From a virus (Duplodnaviria > Heunggongvirae > Uroviricota > Caudoviricetes): a stretch of 64,000 nucleotides of DNA. Position numbers and translations under genes: made by a program. The notes beneath the pieces are model-generated. The model had not been told where the DNA came from, searched no databases, and was given only the letters and a program-made list of their open reading frames with translations. Shown piece by piece: positions 2,319 through 61,974 of this stretch (positions are counted from its first letter, which is position 1; each line of letters begins with the position of its first letter). Location: IMG/VR virus record IMGVR_UViG_3300028601_000019, positions 4,130 to 68,129 of that record. One strand, 5' to 3'.

Positions 2319-4310
2319 TTATCAAGTAGATTCTTCAAGATAGTGATCATCATTAATATCTGAAAGAATACCTCATACATCCTCTTCTTCTTTGTTTTTA
2401 AAAAGGTCAACCTCATCCTTAAAAAGTTCTGTATCAATAAGATAGCACATCCAATATAGACCTGAAACAAGGTCATCTCCACCATCTGTACTTGAAGTAA
2501 ACTTTCCATTCTTTTCAATAAAAGTAGAAATTTGTTTTGCTGTTTCCCTATCTTTAATTATTAGAGAACCGTCTTCAATAAGTTTTTTCATTGTGATAAC
2601 AGCTTTGGTTTTAGATGCTGATGTGGCTCTAATTCCGATTTCATTCTCTTTATTTCCAGAATTGTAAAGATTTGGATTTTCAAAAATTCACCAAAGATTT
2701 TGAGTAACAGTAGATCCCTCAGCATTGTTCTCTGCTCCAATAATAGCATCATTATAATAAATTGAAAGCCTGTTAATGATGGAAGAAAGTTCATAGGTAT
2801 CTGTGACATTGGATTGGAAAGTTGCAGCATTAACTAACTTAACTGGTTTGAATGAGTCTATTCTATAGATTTGAATAGTAGCATCATGAGCACCTGATCC
2901 TTTTGATGGATCAACACCAATAAGAAACTTTTCTCCTTGCTTTGGTTTATGATACACTCGTAATCTATCATTTAGATCTGTTTCTTGAGGATCTTCAATT
3001 GTTGTGTTAATAAATTCAATCCCAGCAGTTGAAACTAGAGTATTAGATGACCCGAGGAACTCAACTTCAAATTCCTGTTTGAATTTTGCAAGGTTGCCCA
3101 TATTCTTAATCTGTTTATCTCTTCAGGTCTTTGTTCTTCCAGGAATCATATCCCAAGTAACTTTCATATGTTTGTATTCATTTCTTTTTGCTTCAGCACC
3201 GGAATATATTTCATGAAATAGATTAAACACACCATTTGGGGTTGAAATGATAATAATTTTAGCCTCATCAGAAGATGAAATTGCTGGATATACTGAAGTA
3301 TAAAATTCTCTTGCTATACCGTCGGAGACGAATCCAAGTTCGTCGAGTAGAAGAAGTGCTACTGAACGCCCCCGAAAGGTATCTTCAGTTGTGCCGGCAG
3401 TTTCAATTTTTGACCCATTTTCAAATTCTATTGATTGTTTATTATATTCAACAACACCCGGTTTAAGATAGAAAGGAAGCTCTTCATACATAATTTTAAT
3501 ACGTCTAAGAAGGTCTTTTGCAGAACTTGCCTTATTAGATGCTATTCCAATAAATTTATCAGAGTGAAATATAGCATATCATAAAGCAAAAGCCCCTACT
3601 GTTGTTGAGTTATGACTCTTTACACCATTTGTATAATAACATTCTCCATCAACATCTAAACAATCATACATATTAGATGATGTATCTAATTTTTCAACAT
3701 TAGAAATTTCTATATCACCATTTTCGGTTTCTATAAAATCCCCAATAGTTAGATCCTTAGCATAAATTTCCTTGTCATCAGAAAATAGTATATGATTATC
3801 AGCACACACAAATTCAATGCCATTATTCAATGATACTTTATATTCATTATATTCAACAGTTTTACCAACACCAGAAAAATCTTTTCATCCATCTGGAGTT
3901 CAAATTTCATAATCTTCACAATTTCTTTTCTCTATAAATTTATCATTTATAACAAAAGAAGATGTTGTTAGTTTGTCAAAGAATTCCCCAATGGTTAATT
4001 CTTCTTCTATTCCTGTTTTCTTGTTTCTTATCTTTATTTTTGTATCCCAAGAAACGCACTTGCCCGATTGTCTACAGAATAAAAAAGTTAAGTATCTATG
4101 ATCTTTACACATTTTAATCATCTTTTTCTGGAAAGGATACAACAAATCTCCAAGCTTTTTTCTTCCACCATCAATTGTTACGATTGTAACAAAGTTTAAA
4201 AAATATAAAACATCTTCAGAACACTTTACAAGATCTGAAATCATTTCTGGTGTGTATTCATCTTCCATTCCTGGATTTTTTACAAATTTATCGTCATATC
4301 TAATTGACAT
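2319..4310 (-). CDS. gp17: Terminase large subunit (T4 gp17-like) containing a mini-intein. The precursor is about 663 aa and is read through 6 in-frame TGA codons.
   Basis: Five standard-code ORFs lie in one frame, separated only by TGA. T4 gp17 motifs are present: LFCRQSGK (Walker A), VEYNKQSIEFENGSKI and KIIIISTPNGVFNLFHEIY. The TGA aligns with an aromatic position in gp17. Confidence 0.85.
3609..4058 (-). other. Hint-domain mini-intein of 150 aa inserted in the terminase P-loop. It runs from Cys1 (CVSWDTKI...) to ...VKSHN and is followed by the +1 Ser of the extein (STTVGAFAL).
   Basis: The extein junctions QSGK|C and HN|STTV reconstitute QSGK-STTV, which matches T4 QLGKTTVV. Intein blocks A (CVSWDT), B (ADNH) and F/G (DCLDVDGECYYTNGVKSHN) are present. 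There is no endonuclease domain. Confidence 0.75.
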
Positions 4311-6162: not shown

Positions 6163-6537
6163 ATGCCTTTACCAGAGCCTAAATCAAATGAAAAAGAAAA
6201 AGATTTTGTTTGTAGATGTATTTCAATACTTTCTGAAGAAAGGGATGAAATGGGGAATCTTCGTTGGCCTCAACAGAATCAAAGAATTGCTGTTTGCTAT
6301 TCTCAATGAGAAAAAAAGAATGAATCAGTTATCATAGATAGAATAAATAAATTTTTAGATGAATCTACAGTGGCTGGAGATGTTGCATCTTATGAGAAGC
6401 CAATTGCAATGGGTAAAAATTCTTATATCCAAAAAAGAGATAAGAAATGATCTTACATTGTTGACGAAAAAGAAGTTGATTCAGATGAAGATGTTGAAGA
6501 ACTTAAAAAAAGAATTAAGAAGGTGGAAAAATAAATG
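6163..6537 (+). CDS. Hypothetical protein of about 124 aa, with 2 in-frame TGA.
   Basis: Read through TGA. Late promoter and ribosome-binding site present. Lies immediately upstream of the portal gene. Confidence 0.45.
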
Positions 6538-8085
6538 GGATTTTTAACAGGATTAAAAGATTTTTTCTTTTCCAACGATGTTAATGAGGAATTGAAACAA
6601 TTTAAAAACATAGGTCAAGAAACAAAAAGAAAGGATTCAGAATTTGGTGAAGGATTTGAAAATCCCCTGATGGCGGCAGCAGGGTTGATTTCCCAGCAAT
6701 TTTATGACAAGTATCTATATCAAAAGCTTGATACTAAAATCAAAAAGATTGAAGAGTATCGAAGAATTGCTGGCAATTCTGAAATTTCTGATGTTATTGA
6801 GGATGCTGTTATTGAATCTACAATGCCAAATGATCAAGATGAAATTTTTAAATTGATATTTAGAGATGAAAAACTTGAGAAAAATAAAAATGCTGTAAAA
6901 AACATTGAAAATGAATTCAATGAACTTATCTACAACAGACTTAGATTGAATACAAAAATTCAAAATTATATGGAAGATTATTTCATTGATGGCGAACTTT
7001 ATTTTGAAAATGTTATTGATACTAACAACGCCAAGAAAGGTATTTTATATTGAAAGAAACTTCCAACAGAAACCATGGATTTTATTTACAATTATGAGAA
7101 AGGAATGACAGATGCATATATCCAGTATCTTAAAGGCGGATTAACCAACACCCTAATTAGATCTATTGAAGATGCTAGAAACTGTAAAGATATTATAGTA
7201 TTTGATAAATCTCAAATTGCATATGTGAATTATGGTAAGTTTTCTCCAGTAGATAGAACAAAGGTATTTGGCTATCTTGAAAAAGCAAGAAAGCCCTTTA
7301 ATCAGCTTAATATGCTTGAAACATCGGTGATCATTTATAGATTAGTAAGAGCTCCTGAAAGATTTGTTTTTAATATTGATGTTGGCAATATGCCCAGAGA
7401 TAAAGCTATGCAATTTGTTGAAAAAATGAAACAAAAACTTTCAACAAAAGAGTCTTTTGATCCTGAAACCGGTCTTTTAAAGAAAGCAGTTAATGTAATG
7501 TCGATTTCTGAAAACTTTTTCTTGCCGACTTCATCGTCCGGACGAGCAAGTTCTGTTAGTACTGTTGGCGGCAATCCTTCTGGTTTTGCTGAATTAGATG
7601 ACATCTACTATTTTCAAAAGAAACTATATAAAGCTTTAAAATACCCCATTACCAGAGTTCAAAATGCTAAAGATGGCCATTCTGGAGACAGTTTATTTGG
7701 TGGATCTTCCAATTTTGGTGAAATCCCTAGAGATGAAGTAAAATGATCTGTTTTTCTTGAAAATCAACAAGATAAGTTTTGTAGAATGCTGCTTAAAACT
7801 TTTCTTATTCATCTTGAGTTTAAAGGATTTTTAAAACAATATGGATTAGATGAATATTCTTTAGCTATTTCTATGAATTGTCCTAATTCATATAGAGATC
7901 AAATTGAACAGAAAGGAAGAGAAACAAAATTCAATAACTATAATATGCTTGTATCTAATGCCGAATTTTCAAAAACATATTTAATGAAAAGATTTCTTGA
8001 TATGGATGATGATGAGATAAAGCTTAATGCCGAAGGCCACAAACTTGACAAAGAATTATTTGGGGCCGGAGAGGAGGACGTTTAA
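6535..8085 (+). CDS. gp20: Portal protein (T4 gp20-like), 516 aa, with 2 in-frame TGA.
   Basis: Three same-frame ORFs are joined by TGA. The size matches gp20, and it lies upstream of the protease, scaffold and MCP genes as in T4. Confidence 0.7.
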
Positions 8086-23534: not shown

Positions 23535-23860
23535 TTGTTTACCCAATCAATAATACCCATTAATCTATACCCTCCGTACTAAGTTATATTATAACTAACC
23601 TATCCGGATATCATTGTAAACAAACAAACTAGGAAAATTTTCGGCAATTTGATATCATGTCCGGAAAACTCAAGATTCTTGATGATTCTAGGAAACCTAA
23701 TTATATCAATAACTTAGAAATCCTCCAAATTCTTAGTTTTCCTAATCAAATTAAGTACTTAGAAGAAATCCTCAAAAAACTAGTGAAAATCGTGTATAAT
23801 TATATTGATTTTTTGCAGGATTCAGGAATCCTAATTATTGTAATAATTTAGGATTCTGAA
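23535..23860 (+). repeat. Copy 1 of a 330-bp dispersed repeat. It contains the palindromes AGTTATATTATAACT, AGGATTCAGGAATCCT and AATTATTGTAATAATT, and a small ORF (23657..23851).
   Basis: About 85-90% identical to 48598..48925. The first palindrome differs between copies but is perfect in both, a compensatory change. Confidence 0.7.
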
Positions 23861-27331: not shown

Positions 27332-27405
27332 GGCCCAGTAACTCAACTGGATAGAGTACGAACCTCCTAAGTTCGAAGTTGCAAGATCGTACCTTGCCGG
27401 GGTCA
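27332..27405 (+). tRNA. tRNA-Arg (anticodon CCU), 74 nt, with one A-G mismatch in the acceptor stem.
   Basis: Hand-folded cloverleaf: acceptor GGCCCAG, D-arm ACTC/GAGT, anticodon arm CGAAC-CTCCTAA-GTTCG, T-arm GCAAG-ATCGTAC-CTTGC. Confidence 0.6.
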
Positions 27406-27411
27406 CAAAAT

Positions 27412-27484
27412 GCTCCTGTAGTTCAATTAGCAGAATCCCCGGCTCATAACCGGACAGTTGTAGGTGCAAATCCTGCCGGGAGCA
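27412..27484 (+). tRNA. tRNA with a CAU anticodon (elongator Met, or Ile if modified to lysidine), 73 nt.
   Basis: Hand-folded cloverleaf: acceptor GCTCCTG/CGGGAGC, anticodon loop CTCATAA, T-arm GTAGG-TGCAAAT-CCTGC. The 1:72 pair is G-C, so it is not an initiator. Confidence 0.65.
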
Positions 27485-27508
27485 CAAACTTTTAAAAGGA
27501 GATTTGAA

Positions 27509-32591: not shown

Positions 32592-33926
32592 GATTCATTT
32601 TCTAATGAAGAATATTGATGTTTTAATGAATTTTTCATTAATTTCCTCCTGAAATTATAAAATTAGTCAAAAACAAAATTTGTTTTCTATATATAATATT
32701 AAAATTAGGATTTCCAATGATTAGATCATCCAAGCACATTTTGAAGTATCAGACTGGTTCAAAGACGAGAGTCTTGAACCAGCTGTTTGACGACTTCAGA
32801 ACAGATTTGTCTTGGTACATAGATCTAATCATTTCGGGGCAATTGCCACTGACCAAGTTCATGTCATCCAAGGACTTGCCTTCAGGGATCATTACTCACT
32901 CCCAATGGAAACAAATTCTATACAAGACAGCATCTGAAATTGTTCGTTCTCAATACAAACAAGCCTCAAATCGACGATTCAAGCATTACAAGAAATTGTT
33001 CCATAGGTGCATTAGTGCAAATAAGCATTGTTCTTTCACTGATAAGAGATTTAGTGAACTGAACCTCAAACCAATTCATCAATCTAGGTTCTTTAGTAAA
33101 CCAGATCTAAAGAATTTCTCAATAACACTAGATTTAAGATTGATTGATTTTCAATATGGACTTCATTTCGATGAATTTGTTAGAATCAAGACTCCATTGT
33201 TTCATGAACACAAGAAACGAGCTATTACAATCAATGTCCCAATCAAGCATCACAAGCATAGTCGTAAGTTTGAGTCTTGGAAACGCAAGAACTCAGTTAG
33301 ATTGACACTAAAGAACAATGTCATGAATCTTGAATTGATCTATGAGAAAGAAGCTCCAAAACTAAAGACCAATGGTTCTGTTCTTGGAATTGATCAAGGC
33401 TATAAGAAATTATTGTCTTGTTCCGATGGAACATTTCTTGGTTCCGAAATGGAATCAATCTACAAATTCATTTCAAACAAAAAGCAAGGTTCCAAATCCT
33501 TCAAGAGAGCATTGATTCATAGGACCAATGAAACGAATCGAATTTGTAATTCTCTAAATCTTTCTAATGTCAAAGAGCTTGTTGTCGAGGACCTCAAGAA
33601 CCTAAAACATAAAACTAAACTAAGTACTAATTTTATGAACAAGATGCAACGCTGGGTTTACCCAGCAGTACTGGGCAAATTGGAATCCTTGGCTGAAATG
33701 AACGATGTTCATTTCACGAAGGTGAATCCTGCTTATACTTCGCAGACATGTTCACAATGCGGATGTGTAGATCCTGGGTCTCGCCAAGGCGAAGGCTTCA
33801 GGTGTTTGCACTGTGGACATGAGATTGATGCAGATTGAAATGCATCAATCAATATTGCCCGTTTGGGAATTTATAGTTCCCAAAGTCCAAAAAGCTAATT
33901 TCATTGTTCTTCATTGAAATTAGTAA
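32588..33926 (+). mobile_element. IS605/IS1341-family TnpB-only element, copy 2.
   Basis: More than 90% identical to 978..2312 across the left end, tnpB and the right end. Confidence 0.75.
32717..33898 (+). CDS. tnpB: TnpB, copy 2, about 393 aa. The terminal TGA is read as Trp.
   Basis: Same motifs as copy 1: CSQCGC...CLHCGHEIDAD-TGA-NASINIARLG. Confidence 0.85.
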
Positions 33927-34149
33927 CTATCTATAGTAACAAAAAAACGTAGTTGTGGGAAACCTTCATATGAATCAATGTGTTTTGCTCTACAAAACAT
34001 GGCCCAAGTTATGAAGGAAAACAACATTACAGAAGTTTTTATGCCTAGAATTGGTTGTGGTTTAGACCGACTATCTTGGCCAGCAGTAAGGGAACAACTC
34101 AAATATGTGTTTGGCGATAGTGAGGTAACTTTCAATGTCTACTATCTCT
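33927..34149 (+). pseudogene. Macro-domain C-terminal fragment. The N-terminal half is missing and the frame opens exactly at the IS right end.
   Basis: YESMCFALQNMAQVMKENNITEVFMPRIGCGLDRLSW...EVTFNVYY resembles the macro C-terminal strands (SIAFPAISTG type). There is no VNAAN/GGGV region upstream. Confidence 0.4.
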
Positions 34150-34632
34150 AATATATTTGAAAATAGTTTGATTGAAAGTTTTAAAGGAGATTATGTATTT
34201 TTAAGTAATTTTTATTTTACATATGTTCTTTATGATGGCATTGTTTGAAAAACAGCTGAGCATGCATATCAGGCCTCTAAAACTCTTGATCCAAAAGAAA
34301 AGAAATGGATATTAGATTGTCCTACTCCACACCTTACCAAAGATTTGGGCCAAAGACTATCATTAAGGGAAGATTGGAATAAAGTAAAGATTCAAATTAT
34401 GAGAGATATTATATTTCAAAAGTTTGAAGCTAATAAAAACATTAAAGATAAACTTATTGCAACACATCCATTTATACTAATTGAGGGAAATGTATGGCAT
34501 GACAACTTTTGAGGGATGTGTAAATGTATAAAATGTGAAAATTTAAAAGTAAAGCATAATCACCTAGGAATTATTCTTATGGAATTGCGATCTTTATATA
34601 TAAACAATTCAGTGTTTTTTAAGGAGAATTAA
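34135..34632 (+). CDS. NADAR (YbiA/DUF1768) domain protein, 165 aa, with 2 in-frame TGA.
   Basis: GDYVFLSNFY and TAEHAYQASK motifs. Confidence 0.6.
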
Positions 34633-39337: not shown

Positions 39338-39838
39338 TATGTATCATTATAATTTAAATTTAATTTTTAATTTTTTTAGAAGTCTTTTGCTTCCAAAATG
39401 AATAGGTGATGGAATTTCATCAAAAGATTTAATTCATTTAAAATCGGAGTGTTCTCAATTTAGTCTAGGTTCAAAAATTTCATCTACTGTTATTATAAAT
39501 GTTGTAAAAACAAAACTACCATCTTCAAAAATATCGAATGGTTTTTCTGAAATTTTAAAGGGGCCATTATATCGCAGTTCTTCTTTAAATTCTCTTTTGG
39601 CTGTTATTTTTGGTCATTTATCATAATCATCGACTTTTCCTGAAACAACAATGCTTCAAGTTCCTGCTTCTTTGACTGTTTTTCATCCGTCTATTGTATC
39701 TTTTTGTCTTTGAAGAACTAAAAATGCTTTTTCTTTCTTAGCGTATATAATAGCACCCGCAGCTTCTTTTCCAAAATAAGATCTTTCAGATTCACCACTT
39801 TTCAGATCCATTCTCAAAAATTTAATAAATTGTGTCAT
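39338..39838 (-). CDS. NUDIX hydrolase, 166 aa, with 6 in-frame TGA.
   Basis: Nudix-box-like SGKVDDYDK-TGA-PKITAKREFKEEL. Length divisible by 3. Confidence 0.45.
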
Positions 39839-39841
39839 AAT

Positions 39842-39866
39842 AAAGGGGAGAGTTTACTCTCCCCGC
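39842..39866 (-). terminator. GC-rich hairpin GGGGAGAG-ttta-CTCTCCCC with a T-run on the minus strand.
   Basis: Lies downstream of the large minus-strand gene. Confidence 0.65.
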
Positions 39867-39870
39867 TCCT

Positions 39871-42800
39871 TTATCCTTTACATTCATCTAATAGCATTAG
39901 AAATTGTGAATATAAACCTTCGGGGTCATCTGTCATAAATGCATCAGTAAATGGTACTCGAATAACACCATCTAAATCTCTTTCTGTATGAAAGACCACC
40001 CCAATTCCAAACTGATTAGAATCTACATACATTTTTTTAGATTTTTTAATAATCTTAGATTCAAAGTCTTGCCAAGGCATCATTTCCTTATGAGTTGGTA
40101 CTAATCCTTGATGAAAAACAAATGTAATAACATTTTTTGATTTAATCATTTCTTGCTCCTGTAGAAAATCTGCAAATGATTTAAAATACTTATTTTCTTT
40201 AATAGCATGGGGATACTGCTTTTTAAGTTTATTCACATATGATTTTGTTGTGAACTTTACTTTGTGTGCTTTAACAATATTAATCTGCGCTTGTGGTCAG
40301 CAAAGTGCTCATTCAGGAGATCTAATAGAATCGGTTCCAGTTCCTGCAACATGATAATGAAGACCTTTTGCTCCAAGATTTACCTCACATTCATATATAG
40401 TCCCAATAGTTCCTTCTTTACGACTAAATCCTTCATCACCAAGATATTGAGCAACTTTCTCAATAACATTAGAAACATAAATACCGCCAACAGTACTAAT
40501 AGTTGCTCTGTGATATAAATCTGAAGGATAGTTTACTATAGCTCTAGTATTTGCTGCACCAGAATCTATAGGAAAATATCCATTTTCCAAATATTCTACA
40601 TAATCATTAGTCTTTTCTATAGCATCACCATCTGCCTTTGCTTTTACTAATGTCATATTGTGGATGTCTAGCATTCTACCAACAGTTGAAGAGTCGTTGG
40701 CCGGAATAACAGTAAATCCAAATCTTAAAATAAAGTTAGAAGCAGTTAATCCCGAAGCATGAAATGCTGGTATGAGATTATCATTTCCAAATCTGGTTTT
40801 AAACTCTTCAAACTGAGGATACTTCATATTAACATTAAATGATTCAAGAAATTCAACTGCTGATGAACCATGCATTCCATTATAATATTTTGAATATTCA
40901 ACTGTCTTCTCATTGAGTTGATCTTGACTTTCTTCAATTTTATCGATTTTAATATCTGGAATTAATGCATCACTCTTTAAAACATCACTTACTCTCTCAA
41001 AATAAGAGGCCCAGGATTCTCGAGGTTTCTTTCTTAACATTGCACCTTTAAATTCAAAGTTATTATAGGTTAATAAGGTTTTAATTCTATTTGGTGTCAA
41101 TTGTGTAAATGGTTTTAGTGGGTTATTCGAAACATAAATATCATTTAAAAGAGGATAAATTAGTAGTTGCTCTTTAAGAGTATTTACTAAGCTATTTTTA
41201 ATTTTATCTGGAAATGCATCTAATAACTTATCAAGATTTTGTATTTTATCTTTGCTAGAAAGCATATCTAACATGATAAATTCAAGACTATTGGTTTTGT
41301 TAAGAAGTCTTTTACCTGATGAAATCTTATCCCAAATTCCACTTACATCCGGATCTGAAAAATATTCTACAAGAGCATCAACTCCATGATCATCATAAAG
41401 CTTTCCAATATAGAATGAGTTCTTATCAAGATACTGAGAGATAACATCTGTTGCTTCTTTAGATGTATAATAATTTGGGTCTCCAAGTCTTATTAAAAGA
41501 AATGAATTCATATAGGATCTTGTAAGAAAATCTTTAAGAGTATCTTTATCAGAAATAAAGTCCAAAAGAAATGAATCTTTTAACTTTTCGGAATCATAAG
41601 AACCAAAATCATCTAATACACTAAAAAGTCGAGCTTTATTATTTTTAGTAGATGTTTGAAAAAGTTCTTTTGCTTCATCCTTAGTTATTATACTTAGGTT
41701 TGCCATATAATTAAGATCTAAAACTATGCTTTTAATTTTACCGCCAGCCAAAAGCTTGTTTTTTAAATGAGTTAAAATTTTATCTTTAAATGCAAGTAAT
41801 GTTGGCTTATTAAGTTTATATGATATAGCCACAGAAAAATAATTATACTCAGTGTCTGAATTCAATTGATCAATTCTTTCATCAATAGCCTTAAAAACTT
41901 TTGCATTTTTGGAAAGATCATAATCTGTATCACGAAATAATTCAATAAATGACCTAAAATTAGAGTGACCAAGATTCTCACTATCTAAATTAACAAATAA
42001 CTCTGTATTATTAAGAATAAAATCAAGAGAAACATTAAAACTTCTAATTAAACTAAAAGGAATATATTCACCAATCAATTTAATTATAAGTTTTATTAAA
42101 TAATAATATTCTGTAGAACCAACAGGCACATTTTTAAATAATGTGTTTACAACTGTTTCATCACTTAATGAATAAACACTCAATGAATTTTGTTGTGTGT
42201 TAGAAGAAATATGATTTAAAAGCTTATTAAAATCATCTCATTTGCCTTTTGTAGCAAAATAAGTTAAACATCTAAATGCCAAAAATTGTTCATACTTTGA
42301 AGCGCCATAATATGGAAATCATTTAAAATTTGAAGGTGTATCGAATACTAAATCTTCAATTAGATATGAGTTATCTAATCTATATTCTCCATATAGATAA
42401 AAAGCTAAAATAATATATTTTGACATATATCTATGATCACTTTTAACTTCATTTAAAAAATCATCATATTTAAGTCCATACTTTTCCATAAATTGTTTAA
42501 TATCTAACCCAGTATCTTGTAAATAAGATTTGTAAAAATTATCTCATTTTGATTCTCCGTCAATAATGTCGGAATTTAACATAGCAAATGTTAGGCCAGA
42601 AGCAACTTTATCTGCAAATGTTAATCGTGAATCTGCTCATTTATATGCATCACATGATTTATTTGTTAACGTTATAAATCTTTTAGCAAGATCTTTTGCT
42701 GGAGTATTATCCTTTCCAATAAATGCAATTAAATCTTCTTCTGGAAGATATTCAATTTGAGCATTTTTAATATAAGAAAAAATAGGAAACTTAGTATCAC

Positions 42801-44085
42801 TATAAATGAAAAATAAAAACTTATCAGTATCAAGACTATGAGAAGCTATAATAGATTTCAGTATTTCAGTACTATCATTCTTAAAATCTCTATCAAAAAC
42901 AAATCTTATATTACTTAATGTTTTATCTAAAAAGTCTTGTGGAACACCAGCTCTAGCTAAACTTCCTATAGTATCTCCAATGAAAGTTTCAATATCATTA
43001 ACAAAAAGATACATAGAATACAAATCACTCATACTATCCATTTTAGAATATAAAAATAATCTACCAAAAGATCGTCTATAATCATCAGCCAAAATAAAAT
43101 CTTTAAAGAAGGTGGGTACTTTAGAAATATCACCAAGAATAGGTGTAAATAAGGTTTCTATATTTGGAAATTCTTGTTTAATAGTGGCAGGTATTGGGTG
43201 AAAAAAGAAAGCTGCAAGATCTTCATATGAAAATGTATACGCAATATGACTTGCAGGAATTCCAAATTTAGCGCAACTTTGAATTACTTCCTTAATAGAA
43301 GAATTATTGCCGTACATATACATTAATATAGCATATTTTGCATGATAAGATGCTCTATCAGAACCAATAAAAGCAACAATGTCATTCCATGTTACCTGTT
43401 TTGTAACTGTAGGAGAAGCAGTAATAACAGAAGTTTTGACAGGGATTGGATCGGGTTTTGGTGCTCCAGTTAATGCAGACTTAACAGGAGACACTGTCTG
43501 AGTTTGTGTGTTAGGATCTATTACATTAGTTGTTGGTGAGCTCTGGGTGCCATCAGTAACACCAGCAAGCCTCTTATACATAACTCTAAATTCATGAGCT
43601 CTTTTATTTTGTAGGGCCAAATTATAAAGCTCTGGAAGCATATCAGCAAGTGTCTTATTACCCTTTACGAAATCCTTAATTAATGCTGAAATTTGTGGGT
43701 ATGGATATACAGAACTAACTTTGATTTTTTTAATAATTTCAGTTCTAACAAGATTCTCATCAAGACCGCCTAATGTTCCGGTTTTAATCTTGGCAAGCAT
43801 TTTGGTAATCTTTGTCATTGTCATATCAGGAATAACCTTCTTGTCATCAATGATCTTAAGAATTACCATTAAATCTGTGTCAGAATCAGTTATCTTTTCA
43901 AGTCTAACTGATGATTGTTTAAAATATTGAATAAGTTTGATATCATCTTTATATTTTGCATAAAGGCCCAAAAATCCTAGAAAATTGATTCAGAATTCAT
44001 TAGTAATTTTCTTTTCCTTAGTAAGAAATTTATCTTTTCCTTCTTGATCTTTTCATATATGGTTCTCAATTAAAAGTTCTCTCAT
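39871..44085 (-). CDS. Very large protein of 1404 aa, read through about 8 in-frame TGA. Its C-terminal third carries an ADP-ribosyltransferase-like R/STS/ExE pattern (FILRFGF ... ATISTVGG ... IYECEV). A candidate Alt-like injected effector.
   Basis: Three standard-code ORFs (39871-40236, 40309-42183, 42637-43971) share one frame. Hand translation of the gaps shows only TGA between them. ATG at 44085 with a GAAGGAGA ribosome-binding site. Confidence 0.5.
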
Positions 44086-44268
44086 TTAAAGAATGTCTCC
44101 TTCAGTGTAATAAAACTATTTATTACTTTCTTGTGCTTTCTTAAACTTAGTAACTATCAAACCTTCACCATCATCTACAAATTTATTGTTATTTTTCTTA
44201 TCCTTTTCTTTCTTCTCTTTTTCTTCTTGAAGATAGTGATTTAATTTTTCATTTATATCGCTCATCAT

Positions 44269-44826
44269 TTAATCCCCTATCAGTTCCACATGTAATTTGT
44301 TTCCTACTTTTTTAAGGATTCTAAATTTAGATTCTTTGTTAAGAAGAATCTCCTCTTCTGCTGCAAAACCACTTAATTCTTTTACAGACATTGCTTTAGA
44401 TCCTTTTGGAACGTGTATTTGTAGTATTGTGGAATCTCTTGACCTTCCAAATCCTATTGCTCGTGTTTCATCAGAAGATGTAGAAACAAACCCCTTATCT
44501 TCAATAACATCATCAAAATCAACTTTAGCAGCAATATGAGCTTTTCCTTTTTTATGAGCGGCCTTTATTTTTTCCTTATATGAATTATAATAGTCTTTAG
44601 TTACTTCTTTCAAATGATGTTTATTTTTGTCAGATTCTTGGACCCCTTCGCTTTTCTTTTCAGTAGACGGCTTATCTATATTGTCAAAATGCTTTTGAAC
44701 ATCATCTAGATGTTTACCAATTAGATCATCATCAAGCCCCTTTAAAATATGTCCATTTTTATCTATTTGAACATGCCGGCCATTAATTGTTATTCATTTT
44801 TCGTTTATATAGGAATAGAAATTCAT
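44269..44826 (-). CDS. ADP-ribosyltransferase (R-S-E class, C3/iota/Alt-like), 185 aa, with 1 in-frame TGA.
   Basis: STS motif GFVSTSSDE. ARTT/ExE motif GFAAEEEILL (compare EQEVLL in C3 and iota toxin). Candidate catalytic Arg in NGRHV. The ATG overlaps the stop of the upstream gene (TAATG). Confidence 0.55.
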
Positions 44827-45116
44827 TACATATCCTCTATTTCATCTTTCCCTTCCTCTTCGGTGGGAACATCTTCTTTATCCAACATTTCAAGTAAACC
44901 TTTAAATTCACCAATATGAACCTTTTCTTCTCTTGCTACATCAAGAAGAACTTCTTTTACTTTCTTGTTCTTTACTTTTCTAGACATCAACTGATACAAG
45001 ACAATTGCATCTTGCTCCGCAACAATAGCCATTCTTAAAATTTCATCATCTGTTTTATCATTGAGATTCATTTCGTTAGATAACATCTCATTAAGTATGA
45101 ATTCTTTAAATTTCAT
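44826..45116 (-). CDS. Ferritin-like/rubrerythrin-family small protein, 96 aa, with an acidic C-terminal tail.
   Basis: The pattern AEQDAIVLY...VAREEKVHIGEFKGLL suggests a ferritin-like ExxH four-helix-bundle half. Translationally coupled to the ART gene. Confidence 0.35.
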   Translation of the reverse strand: MKFKEFILNEMLSNEMNLNDKTDDEILRMAIVAEQDAIVLYQLMSRKVKNKKVKEVLLDVAREEKVHIGEFKGLLEMLDKEDVPTEEEGKDEIEDM

Positions 45117-46535
45117 TTAGGGTTCTTTTAACTCCTTCTCAACTACTTCAAATTTTTCTTTGTCATAGATTCTTAATCTGATATCTCCATATTTAGGAAA
45201 CCATTTATTACTGTGGTCTACCAAATCATATACAATAGCCATATCTTTACTTATATGTTTTCTTAAAACTCTACCAATGCTTTGGCAAATTCTAATAGAA
45301 CTTTTATAGGGAGCAGCAAAAATTAAGTGACCCAAATTTGGAATGTTTATGCCAGTCGAAAATGTGGCATAGGTCGCTAAAACTATAAATTTTTTATCTG
45401 GATTTTGGATAATCTTCTGTCTCCAAATTTCTCTATCCGCAGTGGCCATTGCACCAGAAATAAAAACAATTTTATTATCATCACACAATTCTTGTGAAAT
45501 GAGATGTTGTTTTAAAAATTCACCTTCAGTTTCAACTTTACCAACAAGCAACAACGTGGTTTTCTTTACATCTCTTAAAATGTTTGTAATAATATTTAAT
45601 CTGAAGGGATTTCTGAAAATCTCATCTTTTGCTTCGAAATAATCTTTGCTAAATTTATCATTATATTCAATATGATACATTAAAATTTTGCTATTTGCAA
45701 TGTATCCAAGATCCTGAAGTTCTGATGCTGACACTTCTACTACAATTGGACCCAAATAACTTTTAACATTAAGTACTTCCAATCTAGCATCTGGCATTGT
45801 ACCAGTACAGCCAATTCTATACTCAGCAGAAGAAATCTTTAAAATATCTCTAATAGCGGTTGCTCGTGCCCCATGTACTTCATCTATAATTACGCAGTTA
45901 AATCTCTCAACATTTGTTTTGCAATGTTGTAGACTTTGCCAAGTAGAAATAACTATCTTCTTATCCCACTCTTTAAATTTGGAATATACTCTACCAAGAT
46001 CTTCTTTAAAGAATCCATAATCAAGAATGTCTTTATAAAACTGTTCTACGAGAGAAGTTGTAGGTACAATAATAATAGCATTAGAAATTTTTTTGCAATG
46101 AAGAAGATTCTTAATTATGCCAGCAATGATATAACTCTTGCCTGCACTAGTAGCTGCTCGTAAAATACATTTTTTATATTTAATGGCTTTTCTAATACAA
46201 TTATCTTGATATGGTCTATAATCTCATGGTTCACATTTTTCTAATTCTAGATTATCAAAGTATGAATCTTGTCTTAGAAAATCTTTAACGCAATCTTCGA
46301 TCACCAATTCTGTTTTTGGAAAGTTCTTTTTGTAGAAAGCAAGAAACTCAGTTAATAGACCATACGGAAGAGTCTTCTCATAGATACTAAAAAGATAAAT
46401 TTTACCATCCCAATGACCAACTTTAAATTTTGGATTAAAAGCATATCCCGGGGCATATTCAGCAAAATAATCTTTTAAGGAAAGAAGAATCTCCCTATCT
46501 TCACAGTCTACATAAAAGTGTAGAGCATCTCACAT
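45117..46535 (-). CDS. uvsW: UvsW-like SF2 helicase, about 473 aa, with about 3 in-frame TGA.
   Basis: The N-terminus ALHFYVDCEDREILLSLKDYF...AFNPKFKVGHWDGKIYLF matches T4 UvsW VHFHDFSHVRIDCEE...RFNPRFRYGNWDGRIRLL. Motif I ATSAGKS, motif II DEVH, motif VI QSIGRVLR. Confidence 0.8.
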
Positions 46536-47532: not shown

Positions 47533-48507
47533 TTAAGATAGTAAATAATGTTCTATTTTTCCTTCAATACTATTTTCAAAAAGTTTCAATTTTCTTGGAA
47601 GAATGGTTATTGAAACATCTCTCTCCTTTGTAACTCTCTCTAATGATGAGTCACTAAATGAACATTCAATAGGAACAACGTACATAGACGACGTTGGAGT
47701 TAACAAAACTACTGATGTTGAAATATAAGGAGAAGGATTTTCTCTAATTGGACAGAATTTAGTATCTCTCTTCAAATTTTTTGATGTGAGATTTTTAAGT
47801 AATGTTAAAACTTCCAATGGATGATTTGGATTTTCATCTTCAATTGCTTTGATTACCGTATCTCTTCTCATTATAGAAGACTTATACCCCTCGCCATCTT
47901 CTTTAGTATATCCAGCATCTTTTAAAAGAATCCCATGATTAGTTCTTACAACTAGTACATCATCTTTAATTTCTTTGACTTTAACATCATAATCTTCTGG
48001 TGTAATATGTTTCAACAAAATAGCTTTAACATCATCCTCATTTTCAATTGAGTCGATTTCTAAATCTTTAAGAATAGCTTCTTTGGTTTTATTATTAAGA
48101 AATATCTCCAAACAAAAAAGCTTCTCACCATCAGAAACAAGAGTATTACCCTCAAATCTTTCTTCAACTAATGTATCTACAACATCTTGAAGTTTATCCA
48201 TTTTAAGAACTTGTCTTAGAATAACTCCATTTCTACTAGTTTTTCGATTTTTAATAGATAGCCTTTTTTGCCCATCCTTCTTATCTTCATGATTTTGAAG
48301 AGCAACAGAAACAAGCATGATTCCTTTTGAATTGATTCCCTCAGTTCAATCATTATATTCATCGATTAAAAAGGCTGAAGTTGTCTTATCATGAGAATAA
48401 TACTTGATAGAATATTTTGGTTTATAAGCTCTGTCCCTGATCTTATATAAAAATCATTGTTCCTTGCTATTTTTGTTTTTAATCTTCATGCCAACGGCAA
48501 CACACAT
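47533..48507 (-). CDS. Hypothetical protein, 324 aa, with 2 in-frame TGA. The N-terminus is MCVAVG, a possible Ntn-hydrolase-like N-terminal Cys.
   Basis: ORF extended through TGA to the ATG at 48507. Confidence 0.4.
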
Positions 48508-48597
48508 AGAGTTAAAATCTCCATAAAATTAATTTTGTTTTAATTATTTATAAGAAATTAAAGATGTCAATGCCGATTCATTCACCATAGCATTTGT

Positions 48598-48925
48598 TTA
48601 CCCAATCAATATTACATATTAATCTATGCCCTCCGTACTAAGTTAATATATTAACTAACCTATTTCTCCAGGGTTGTAAACAAAGAAAATTCAAAAACAT
48701 TCAAAATTCTCACCTTCTAAATTAATAAGTCCAGAAAACTCAAGATTCTTGATGATTTTAGGAAGCCTAATTATATCAATAACTTAGAAATCCTCCAAAT
48801 TCTTAGTTTTCCTAATAAATCTAAATACTTAGAAGAAATTATCCGGAAAATCATAGAAATGGTGTATAATTATATTGATTTTTTGCAGGATTCAGGAATC
48901 CTAATTATTGTAATAATTTAGGAAT
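48598..48925 (+). repeat. Copy 2 of the 330-bp dispersed repeat (see 23535). It lies between divergent gene clusters.
   Basis: Same palindromes, with compensatory substitutions (AGTTAATATATTAACT). Confidence 0.7.
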
Positions 48926-60414: not shown

Positions 60415-61974
60415 ATGGCTGAAAAAGATACTTTAAGAGATAATGTAAGGAAGGATGTTAAACAGACTACAACACTTCCTTTTAGTTTTAAAAATTTTGT
60501 TACTGGTATAGGGCTTGCTATTTCAAGATCTGGTGCACGGACATGAGATAAATTAGCTGATATGCCAGATGAAATAAAAAATGGATTTTCAAAAGTTTCT
60601 AGTACTATTCAATCTAGTACTACTGAAATTATGGGGTCCGCTTTAAATTCAATGATTGGAGATATTAAGTCTTTAGCATCGGGAATAAAAGATATTACTA
60701 CAGGAACTTTTAAAAAACTTTTTTCATTCTTTGGTGGTGATAATGAAGAGCTCAGTGAAGAAAAGAAACAAACAAAAACTCTTGGCAATATTTTTAAGAT
60801 TTTTAAGAAATGAAGCATTAGAGATATGTTTAAACCTAAAGAAAAGAATAAAGATGATGGAGGTTTTTTTGCCCCATTAGCTATTATAGGTCTTGCACTT
60901 GGAGCTATCACTGGTGGAATAGCTGCTGGTATTGGTGGTGTCATTGAATATTTTCTTATTCCTTTTAAAGTGGTTTTAAATAGTTTAAGAGGTGTTACTA
61001 CTCTTTTAAAGGAATCTTCAATTGGAAAACTTTTTATTGATTTTTTTGGAAAAGTAAGAGCATTTTTTAGTGGGTGAATTGATAACGCTTTAGTTTCTAT
61101 TAATAGTTTTTTTGGAAAGTTTAAAATTTTTGCTGGATTTTTTAAAGGGTTTAGTATTGGATTTATGAAACTATTTTCAAAAATTCCTGTTATCGGATGA
61201 TTTATTACTGGCGTAATGGCAATTATTGATTTTTTTACTGGGTTTTTCGGAACGGAAGGAAGCTTCTTTGAAAAAATAAAGGCCGGCTTAATAAACATGA
61301 CCACTGGATTTTTTTCCCCAATTTTTGAATTTATAGGATGAATTGGAGATTGAATTTTAAATCTATTTGGAATAAATTCTGATATAGGAACAACCTTAAA
61401 TACTTGATTTTCTAATCTTTTAAATTTCTTTTTTAATTTTCCTATAGTTGAAAAACTTAAGAATGCTTGAGAAGGAATACAAAATGCTGCAAATGCACTT
61501 GTTGAATCATTAAAAAATTGACTAATATCATTAATTCCCTCTTTCGATTCTATTAAAGAAATGCTTCCATCTTTTGACTCTATTAAAAAATCTATAATTG
61601 GGACAAGAGATACTATCAAAGATGAGGCTAAAAATGCTTGAAATTCGGCAGGCGAATATATTGGATCTTTTTTTGAAAAGGACAATTTATCACCAGCTCA
61701 GACTATTAGTGATCTTGATTCATCTACTAAAGCAAAAGAAGTATCCAATAATAAAGAAATGGCAAAAGCATTATATAAAATGACAGAACAACAAATTAAA
61801 GAATCTAAAAAACGTGATGAAGAAAAGAAAGAAACAGTTAATCAGCAAGTTAATGTTTCTTCAGTTCAAAATTCAAGAGGATCTTCCGGAGGCACATTTA
61901 TTGAGGCTCCGGATGAAATTGAAAACTTTGGAATTGTATTTATGAATAAAACAACACTAGGAGGAACGTTCTAA
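60415..61974 (+). CDS. gp29: Tail tape-measure-like protein of about 519 aa, Gly-rich with hydrophobic segments and about 9 in-frame TGA.
   Basis: ORFs 60562, 60826 and 61759 share a frame. Position after the tube gene and before a gp48-like gene, matching the T4 order 29-48. Confidence 0.55.

Follow-up and report, generated by a model that had tools for sequence, protein, structure and literature searches.

The DNA analysed here (hereafter the window) is a 64,000-nucleotide stretch from a phage that is T4-like by its PHROG and Pfam matches (UvsX, UvsW, a gp13-like adaptor and a tail fibre); a 164,754-bp contig carries an identical neighbouring gene, which indicates a genome of at least 165 kb. 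Within a minus-strand block in which every gene abuts or overlaps its neighbour, a putative ADP-ribosyltransferase (ART) gene lies between an upstream ferritin-like gene and a small downstream ORF. The features of this locus are as follows.

44826..45116, minus strand: 96-aa gene resembling encapsulated ferritin (EncFtn-like; half-ferritin, di-iron), identified by Pfam and PDB matches; its stop overlaps the ART start
44833-44837, minus strand: Shine-Dalgarno sequence GAGGA, read from the sequence, 6 nt 5' of the ART ATG and inside the 3' end of the upstream gene
44269..44826, minus strand: putative ART-remnant ORF, a 186-codon frame (185 codons plus TAA) that is readable only with TGA as Trp; it encodes an N-terminal module and a charged linker, followed by one helix and then the C-terminal half of an ART domain
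44794-44796, minus strand: in-frame TGA, codon 11, read as Trp (TGG in the related loci L001 and L002, TGA in L003)
44707..44796, minus strand: N-terminal module, residues 11-40 (W-I-T-I-N-G-R-H-V...G-x-I-x-x-G-L...I-G-K), which holds R17
44509..44514, minus strand: codons 105-106 (GAT GAT), the deletion junction, located by aligning DNA and protein to L001, L003 and the proteins P0001-P0003
44272..44511, minus strand: the part of the ART domain that survives, its C-terminal half (residues 106-185), with STS strand, PN-loop region, ARTT loop (ExE) and last strands
44476-44484, minus strand: S-T-S motif (S115-T116-S117) within GFVSTSSDE, its first Ser invariant in a family alignment of 49 sequences
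44350-44358, minus strand: E-E-E, the ARTT-loop ExE (E157-E159), within EEEILL; among the 49 sequences the second Glu never varies, and conservation of the first is at least 90%
44116..44268, minus strand: charged 50-aa ORF whose ATG directly follows the ART TAA, present or absent together with the ART gene in related phages

The preliminary description of this locus had proposed a compact R-S-E ART of 185 aa, with a textbook STS motif, an ARTT loop some 40 aa farther on and a catalytic Arg upstream, translationally coupled through a TAATG start/stop overlap to a ferritin-like gene. The STS motif and the ARTT loop are both there, 42 residues apart, and the Glu residues of the ExE are conserved in relatives. 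The overlap is also plain in the sequence, the ATG of the ART gene (44826-44824) sharing bases with the TAA of the 96-aa ORF.

Whether a 185-aa protein exists at all depends on the meaning of codon 11. The standard-code ORF listing holds only a 114-aa ORF that starts at TTG 44613, and the JGI gene call (source record 3300044603, the 70,487-bp contig Ga0485107_001083; P0004) is the same 114-aa form. These two, together with the fact that a search of the 64-kb window with ARAGORN found neither a suppressor tRNA nor a tRNA-Trp(UCA), but only tRNA-Arg(CCT) and tRNA-Met(CAT), speak for TGA as a stop and for a true product of 114 aa. Against this, the stretch 5' of the TTG is conserved as protein, and 20 diverse family members all have Trp at the position of codon 11. 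TGA and TGG are, moreover, exchanged for one another across the region: between 33 and 49 kb, TGA codons of the window correspond in the orthologs to TGA 36 times and to TGG 17 times, and never to a GGN (Gly) codon. In addition, code 4 makes whole three genes that TGA breaks up under the standard code, namely those for a UvsW-like helicase (472 aa), a NUDIX protein and a 1404-aa protein. Indeed, many neighbouring same-frame open stretches in the window are parted by TGA alone, and treating TGA as a sense codon yields 85 ORFs that cover 89% of the window. Because TGA aligns with TGA or TGG and never with a Gly codon, it corresponds to Trp (code 4); the lack of GGN counterparts rules out Gly (code 25), and conservation that spans the TGA, both in the orthologs and in the wider family, leads us to reject the 114-aa product. 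On the strength of these comparisons we conclude that the phage reads TGA as Trp, and that the standard code has next to no chance of being the right one here. The decoding itself might be done by a suppressor tRNA encoded outside the window or by a host that uses code 4. The 185-aa protein of the preliminary description therefore stands if TGA is read as Trp, as the evidence supports, even though in the standard code its frame is broken at codon 11. The ART ORF exists only under the reassigned code and was overlooked by public annotation. Code 4 is rare in phages, being used in about 0.1% of phage genomes (PMC11210395), and its use by a T4-like phage with a genome of 165 kb or more may merit separate follow-up.

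The protein read in code 4 matches the Pfam family PF03496 (ADPrib_exo_Tox) with E=4.8e-15 and 55.9 bits (cutoff 23.4), and, judged by this match, the window gene is a homolog by descent of the VIP2/C3/Alt-type R-S-E ARTs. It is, however, an incomplete one. The match spans only residues 99-172, that is, profile positions 104-175 of 196, whereas P0001, an intact ortholog, covers profile positions 16-175. Close relatives of the window ART in the protein database number just three (P0001-P0003; 268-272 aa, 76-81% identical), apart from the 114-aa JGI call, and these three sit in fully syntenic contigs. The shared gene order is the UvsW helicase, a 96-aa rubrerythrin-like protein, the ART, a 48-aa ORF, a protein of 1404 or 1419 aa and the NUDIX protein, followed by an RyR-domain protein, UvsX and an SbcC-like protein; L003 has an extra 173-aa gene ahead of the 1404/1419-aa protein, and a NADAR gene lies farther along in L001, the sole locus that reaches that far. 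The 1404-aa protein belongs to PHROG 18612, of unknown function, and the idea that its C-terminus might be PARP-like (H-Y-E) received no backing from Pfam or from a PDB sequence search.

Alignment with these orthologs shows that exactly 252 nt (84 codons) are missing, in frame, from the window copy between ...GTTGATTTTGAT and GATGTTATTGAAGAT..., with GAT microhomology at both edges of the deletion. The missing segment encodes 'YRAINGLLRG' and 'MVLYRGF', which correspond to the Y-x-x-I-N-x-x-L-R helix and to the strand that bears the catalytic Arg, V-Y-R-G; P0001-P0003 all have V-Y-R-G, and conservation of this motif among 49 relatives is at least 90%. In the 49-sequence alignment, the positions with complete or at least 90% conservation (P0001 numbering) are Y124, N133, L136, R137, R179, G180 and G192 in the deleted part and F200, S202, P227, K228, G229, E244 and E246 in the retained part, so that 7 of the 15 most conserved positions of the family (the initiator Met included in the 15) fall within the deleted segment. 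The possibility that the short form is ancestral and that the relatives carry an insertion is ruled out, since the segment is core ART (profile positions 16-104) and contains residues whose conservation across the 49 relatives is complete or at least 90%. Similarly, the shortest family members that we inspected, at 150 aa (P0138 and P0143), keep both the helix and the YRG blocks, so that the short form in the window is derived and does not represent an alternative architecture. Among the best 150 of 3,854 family matches, inspected over the matched region and, for short members, in full, we saw no other half-ART. A search of the 64-kb window in six frames by tblastn and HMM likewise found neither a moved copy of the missing half nor a second ART of the same family. 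A scan of IMG/VR with the ART profile gave no locus that could be confirmed, probably because its patterns were taken from the N-terminus and because TGA interrupts confirmation by tblastn.

Structure models give a corresponding picture. The AlphaFold2 (AF2) model of P0001 (pLDDT 89) superposes on VIP2, C3bot, Vis, Certhrax and iota Ia, with a best Foldseek E of about 1e-11 and with 190-220 aligned columns and TM 0.6-0.72 against single-domain ARTs. The model of the window protein (the 174 aa that follow the TGA; pLDDT 87.5, pTM 0.54; best Foldseek E 3e-5) matches C3, VIP2 and iota toxin over 85-100 columns at TM 0.31-0.37, roughly half the length. The alpha-lobe helices (H117-166 in P0001) and strand beta-1 (175-181) are gone from the window protein. 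By this measure about half of an ART fold is left in the window protein. We take the high pLDDT of the retained strands to reflect covariation within the family; it is silent on the stability of a sheet that has lost its central strand.

The remaining candidate for a catalytic Arg lies in the N-terminal module. R17 is the only Arg ahead of the STS motif in the window protein, about 98 residues before it. In 18 of 148 relatives the module (W-I-T-I-N-G-R-H-V-x-I-x3-G-x-I-x2-G) stands at the very start of the protein; its W, T, G, G and G are invariant, and AF2 folds it into a small three-stranded sheet. We found no Pfam match for it, and its likeness to clostridial cell-wall-binding/TcdA repeats in a comparison with the PDB is insignificant (E=0.03).

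These observations bear directly on the idea that the gene encodes a complete, compact and active R-S-E toxin with its catalytic Arg upstream of the STS motif. The presence and correct spacing of STS and ExE, and a Pfam match above the gathering threshold, are what would be expected of such an enzyme. Nevertheless, the upstream Arg on which the preliminary description relied can only be R17, in a separate module, and the family Arg of V-Y-R-G has been deleted along with the NAD-binding helix; only half of the fold aligns, and even the 150-aa relatives P0138 and P0143 retain the R block. We therefore consider an active compact ART very unlikely. What survives of the proposal is membership in an R-S-E family with the S-T-S and ExE elements in place; what does not is the triad, because the catalytic Arg, the NAD-binding helix and strand beta-1 are deleted. 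The proper label for the gene is a truncated or degenerate member of PF03496, not an R-S-E enzyme, and we infer that its 185-aa product would be unable to bind or activate NAD+ and would be enzymatically dead. The locus is a cautionary case in which spotting STS and ExE motifs named an enzyme that lacks one third of its catalytic triad.

The deletion is a genuine feature of a circulating phage. Three further assemblies (ENA ERZ27247324, Logan SRR25572339 and Logan SRR8449815) carry an identical 185-codon gene, called as 185 aa there, so that four independent assemblies share the deleted allele at 100% identity; stretches of up to 12.3 kb around the ART gene are shared at 100% identity. The occurrence of the same allele in four independent assemblies rules out an assembly artefact.

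Related phages also differ in whether they have the gene. At the IMG/VR loci L005-L007 the ferritin-like gene is 94% identical, and both the ART gene and the small ORF are absent; the stop of the ferritin-like gene is followed by a 36-nt spacer and then by the start of the large protein. Identities of the helicase and of the large protein give the tree (L003,(window,(L001,L005))), which implies an ancestral module, formed by the ART and the small ORF, that suffered loss or damage on at least two occasions: it was lost whole in one lineage (L005-L007) and damaged in another (the window). A conserved motif, KFVDxGxGLxxTK, marks the small ORF, whose product has 50 aa in the window and 48 aa in the orthologous loci.

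Taken together, these findings suggest that the window ART is the dead remnant of a dispensable accessory gene, produced by an in-frame deletion, rather than a compact toxin paired with the ferritin-like gene, a reading to which we assign a probability of roughly three in four. The ancestor would have been an accessory ART of about 270 aa, of the VIP2/C3/Alt-like R-S-E clan, in which a charged linker joined a small N-terminal beta module to a complete ART domain. If it worked like T4 Alt/Mod and VIP2-type enzymes, it would have used NAD+ for the mono-ADP-ribosylation of arginines in host proteins. ExE, as opposed to QxE, suggests Arg-directed transfer, and the ancestral protein was probably an Arg-directed mono-ADP-ribosyltransferase of the Alt/VIP2 type. 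The loss of 252 nt between two GAT triplets would then have removed the alpha-helical lobe and strand beta-1 with the catalytic Arg, leaving the N-terminal module together with STS and ExE on half a fold. In this scheme the ART and the small downstream ORF would form a module that these phages can do without and are in the process of losing, and the upstream EncFtn-like gene would have a separate function and merely share the operon.

Several properties of the gene count against calling it a remnant and could instead point to a truncated protein that is still useful as a non-catalytic pseudoenzyme (through a role of the N-terminal module, for example, or as a target-binding decoy or a virion component) and that is kept by selection. 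The deletion is in frame, with start, Shine-Dalgarno sequence and stop intact; the Shine-Dalgarno sequence is a good one and the ORF is otherwise undamaged. Conservation of the N-terminal module is complete, the pLDDT of the retained strands is high, and the allele was found in four datasets. There is also no sign of relaxed constraint in the retained half, with dN 0.028 and dS 0.645 (dN/dS ~0.04), values that apply to the whole window branch, the four identical copies giving no post-deletion signal. The low ratio fits a recent deletion and continued constraint equally well. Indeed, a recent deletion predicts all of the points that favour a pseudoenzyme, the AF2 confidence is open to the explanation from covariation given above, a sister lineage does without the whole gene, and the best 150 of the 3,854 family matches, as inspected above, showed no other half-ART. 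We accordingly regard selection for a pseudoenzyme as unlikely, though deserving of some weight. The in-frame nature of the deletion may simply keep ribosomes flowing, through translational coupling, into the downstream genes, beginning with the 50-aa ORF.

The other partner in the proposed pair is, as the preliminary description had recognized, a ferritin-like protein. The 96-aa protein matches PF02915 (Rubrerythrin) with E=1.1e-10 and, in the PDB, the P. furiosus EncFtn structure 5n5e with E=9.5e-17; it also matches the encapsulin-fused 2e0z and M. xanthus EncB/EncC. Residues E34, Y41, E63, E64 and H67 are invariant and supply the Glu, Tyr and ExxH di-iron ligands that are conserved in these proteins, and the protein has the two-helix unit of a half-ferritin with its di-iron ligands. 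The acidic tail noted previously is present (DKEDVPTEEEGKDEIEDM). The window gene differs from the known EncFtn systems in that it is phage-encoded and has neither an adjacent encapsulin shell gene nor a recognisable targeting peptide, the acidic tail having been read by eye. The EncFtn-like gene is kept across about 19 sequence clusters (75-100% identical), which include the syntenic phage contigs that we examined, and we found no relatives of it in 50,697 deposited phage genomes. More distant relatives (L012-L014) lie in phage-like contigs and in an archaeal contig, the latter next to VIT1 and NifU, and none of these is beside an ART gene.

The preliminary description had suggested that the ART and this protein form a toxin/immunity or effector/chaperone pair. 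The TAATG overlap and the adjacency of the two genes in L001-L003 and in the identical contigs are compatible with a dedicated pair of this kind. However, since genes abut or overlap throughout the minus-strand block, the overlap is not specific to these two genes and is ordinary operon packing. The EncFtn-like gene persists at 94% identity without an ART in L005-L007, its relatives in L012-L014 likewise have no ART neighbour, and its conserved di-iron ligands are typical of an autonomous ferroxidase. Furthermore, it is the downstream ORF of 48-50 aa, and not the upstream gene, whose presence tracks that of the ART. The suggestion of a dedicated pair did not survive these comparisons, and we judge it highly improbable. 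A scan of the region for promoters and terminators found promoter-like sites to be no commoner than in shuffled sequence, and a sole terminator-like hairpin at 39845-39864, 3' of the large gene.

A different account would place the emphasis on the ferritin-like gene itself. According to this view, the T4-like, TGA-recoded phage carries a bona fide EncFtn-like di-iron protein that might be loaded into its HK97-fold head, much as encapsulin cargo is, or might manage iron or oxidative stress during infection, and selection could be keeping the half-ART as a non-catalytic protein, so that it would not be mere debris. We hold this account as a whole to be unlikely. A phage-borne EncFtn-like gene may in any case merit separate follow-up.

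[quoted passage not shown] The window locus resembles that of T4 Alt/ModA/ModB in its T4-like phage context and in the presence of NUDIX and NADAR genes nearby, and PHROGs 802 (E=2.4e-10) and 26651, both Alt-like, are among the matches of the intact ortholog. The window copy gives no match to an Alt-like PHROG at E<=0.01, because the matching part is deleted. The ART of this locus is also much smaller than Alt, which has 682 aa. The likeness to VIP2, iota Ia, CDTa, C2-I, SpvB and C3 (PF03496) consists of the STS strand and the ARTT ExE, 'EDKGFVSTS...GFAAEEEILLNK' in the window protein aligning with 'EDKGYMSTS...GFASEKEILLDK' in VIP2, and extends to the full fold in the intact orthologs. The window copy, by contrast, is without the Arg strand and the alpha-lobe; it is also phage-encoded, has no binary-toxin translocation partner and carries the extra N-terminal beta module. 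Thus, the earlier placement of this ART nearer to C3 and iota toxins than to T4 Alt holds as far as membership in the C3/VIP2/iota family (PF03496) is concerned, but not as a contrast with Alt, given the Alt-like PHROGs that turned up for the intact ortholog.

Among annotated phage proteins, those closest to the intact ortholog are the 'VIP2-like ADP-ribosyltransferase toxin' proteins of Gordonia phages (ScarletRaider gp25, for example), which align with it across the ART domain. These differ in being only 27-30% identical and in belonging to another type of phage with another host, using the standard code and having no EncFtn-like neighbour reported under the match. Nothing at this locus is a new kind of system: Alt/VIP2-type phage ARTs are well known, and the window copy is a decaying, damaged member of that known family. 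Closely related phages nonetheless have the module intact, with its ART half-deleted, or not at all, a natural series in which the part played by such ARTs in infection could be examined.

We compared window positions 44086-44825 with the corresponding loci of three sister phages (L005, L006 and L007) and found that both the half-deleted ADP-ribosyltransferase (ART) gene remnant and an adjacent 50-aa open reading frame (ORF) are wholly missing from all three, in which only a 36-nt spacer separates the encapsulated-ferritin-like (EncFtn-like) gene from the gene for a large protein. The ART gene and the 50-aa ORF are a two-gene module that is polymorphic for presence or absence. The relevant features are as follows:

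44116-44268, minus strand: strongly charged 50-aa ORF, beginning immediately past the ART stop codon
44826-45116, minus strand: phage-encoded gene for an encapsulated-ferritin-like protein (PDB 5n5e, E=9.5e-17)
39871-44085, minus strand: gene for a 1404-aa protein, with 8 TGA codons; sole match PHROG 18612 (annotated as unknown function)
L005 4283-4321, also L006 and L007 (IMG/VR UViG_3300042267_000149 and others): locus without the ART module

The 50-aa ORF contains a conserved motif, KFVDxGxGLxxTK, and a family search with the ORF gave zero matches. Because it comes and goes jointly with ART and starts directly after the ART stop, its product may be a partner of ART, as a regulator or inhibitor. 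The EncFtn-like protein, in which the di-iron ligands are invariant, is kept in approximately 19 related sequence clusters at 75-100% identity. Among 50,697 deposited phage genomes it had zero matches; more distant relatives came from archaea and from other large phage-like contigs.

The ART neighborhood is a cluster of NAD/ADP-ribose-related genes that resembles those published for myoviruses (PMC9503650). The 1404-aa protein is diverging fast, being 50% and 38% identical to its counterparts in L001 and L003, respectively (two syntenic contigs with an intact ART gene). A PARP-like H-Y-E was suspected near its C terminus (FHASG...GGIYVSN...YECEV), and sequence searches of Pfam and PDB were empty. 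Two genes close to ART make up this cluster with it:

34135-34632, plus strand: gene for a 165-aa protein matching PHROG 1017 (annotated as unknown function)
39347-39838, minus strand: NUDIX hydrolase gene

In L001, a NADAR-domain gene occupies the place of the 165-aa gene.

Many ART proteins, both small and large, share a module that is always N-terminal:

44707-44796, minus strand: W-I-T-I-x-G-x-H-V-x-I-x3-G-x-I-x2-G-[LM]-G-G-K-F-x-G-K, residues 12-45 of the intact ortholog P0001

The likeness of this module to clostridial cell-wall-binding/TcdA repeats is weak and non-significant (E=0.03). Outside this phage group, the closest relatives among the matches listed (P0005-P0029) are giant proteins of 1000-7000 aa (for example, P0005, 3397 aa; P0008, 4350 aa; and P0083, 7004 aa), and the 148 matches listed, from the best 150 of 3,854, carry a total of 328 ART-domain matches, a pattern like that of polyvalent proteins (Iyer et al. 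2017).

The phage genome also harbors a transposase-like ORF:

32717-33898, plus strand: 393-aa ORF matching transposase PHROGs (phrog_506, E=1.5e-28)

Judged from its zinc-finger C terminus, this ORF looks TnpB/IS605-like. In addition, the window contains a dispersed direct repeat, detected as a secondary blastn match: ~330 bp of intergenic sequence at ~48594-48923, upstream of gene 47533-48507, are 83% identical to 23535-23853.

Throughout the window (1-64000) TGA is a Trp codon; ORFs called with code 4 contain 126 TGA and 143 TGG codons, with the TGA load varying from zero to 10 per gene. Examples of such usage, in addition to the 1404-aa gene, are:

2319-4310, minus strand
6535-8085, plus strand
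45117-46535, minus strand
60415-61974, plus strand

Many window genes are split in the public JGI annotation, which was made with the standard code. No suppressor tRNA was found within the 64-kb window, which has only two tRNAs:

27332-27406: tRNA Arg-CCT
27412-27485: tRNA Met-CAT

In another phage-like contig, L012, the gene that follows the EncFtn-like one (6257-6652) encodes 131 aa and includes an RF-1 (peptide-chain-release-factor) domain, which could be relevant to how phages of this kind deal with stop codons.
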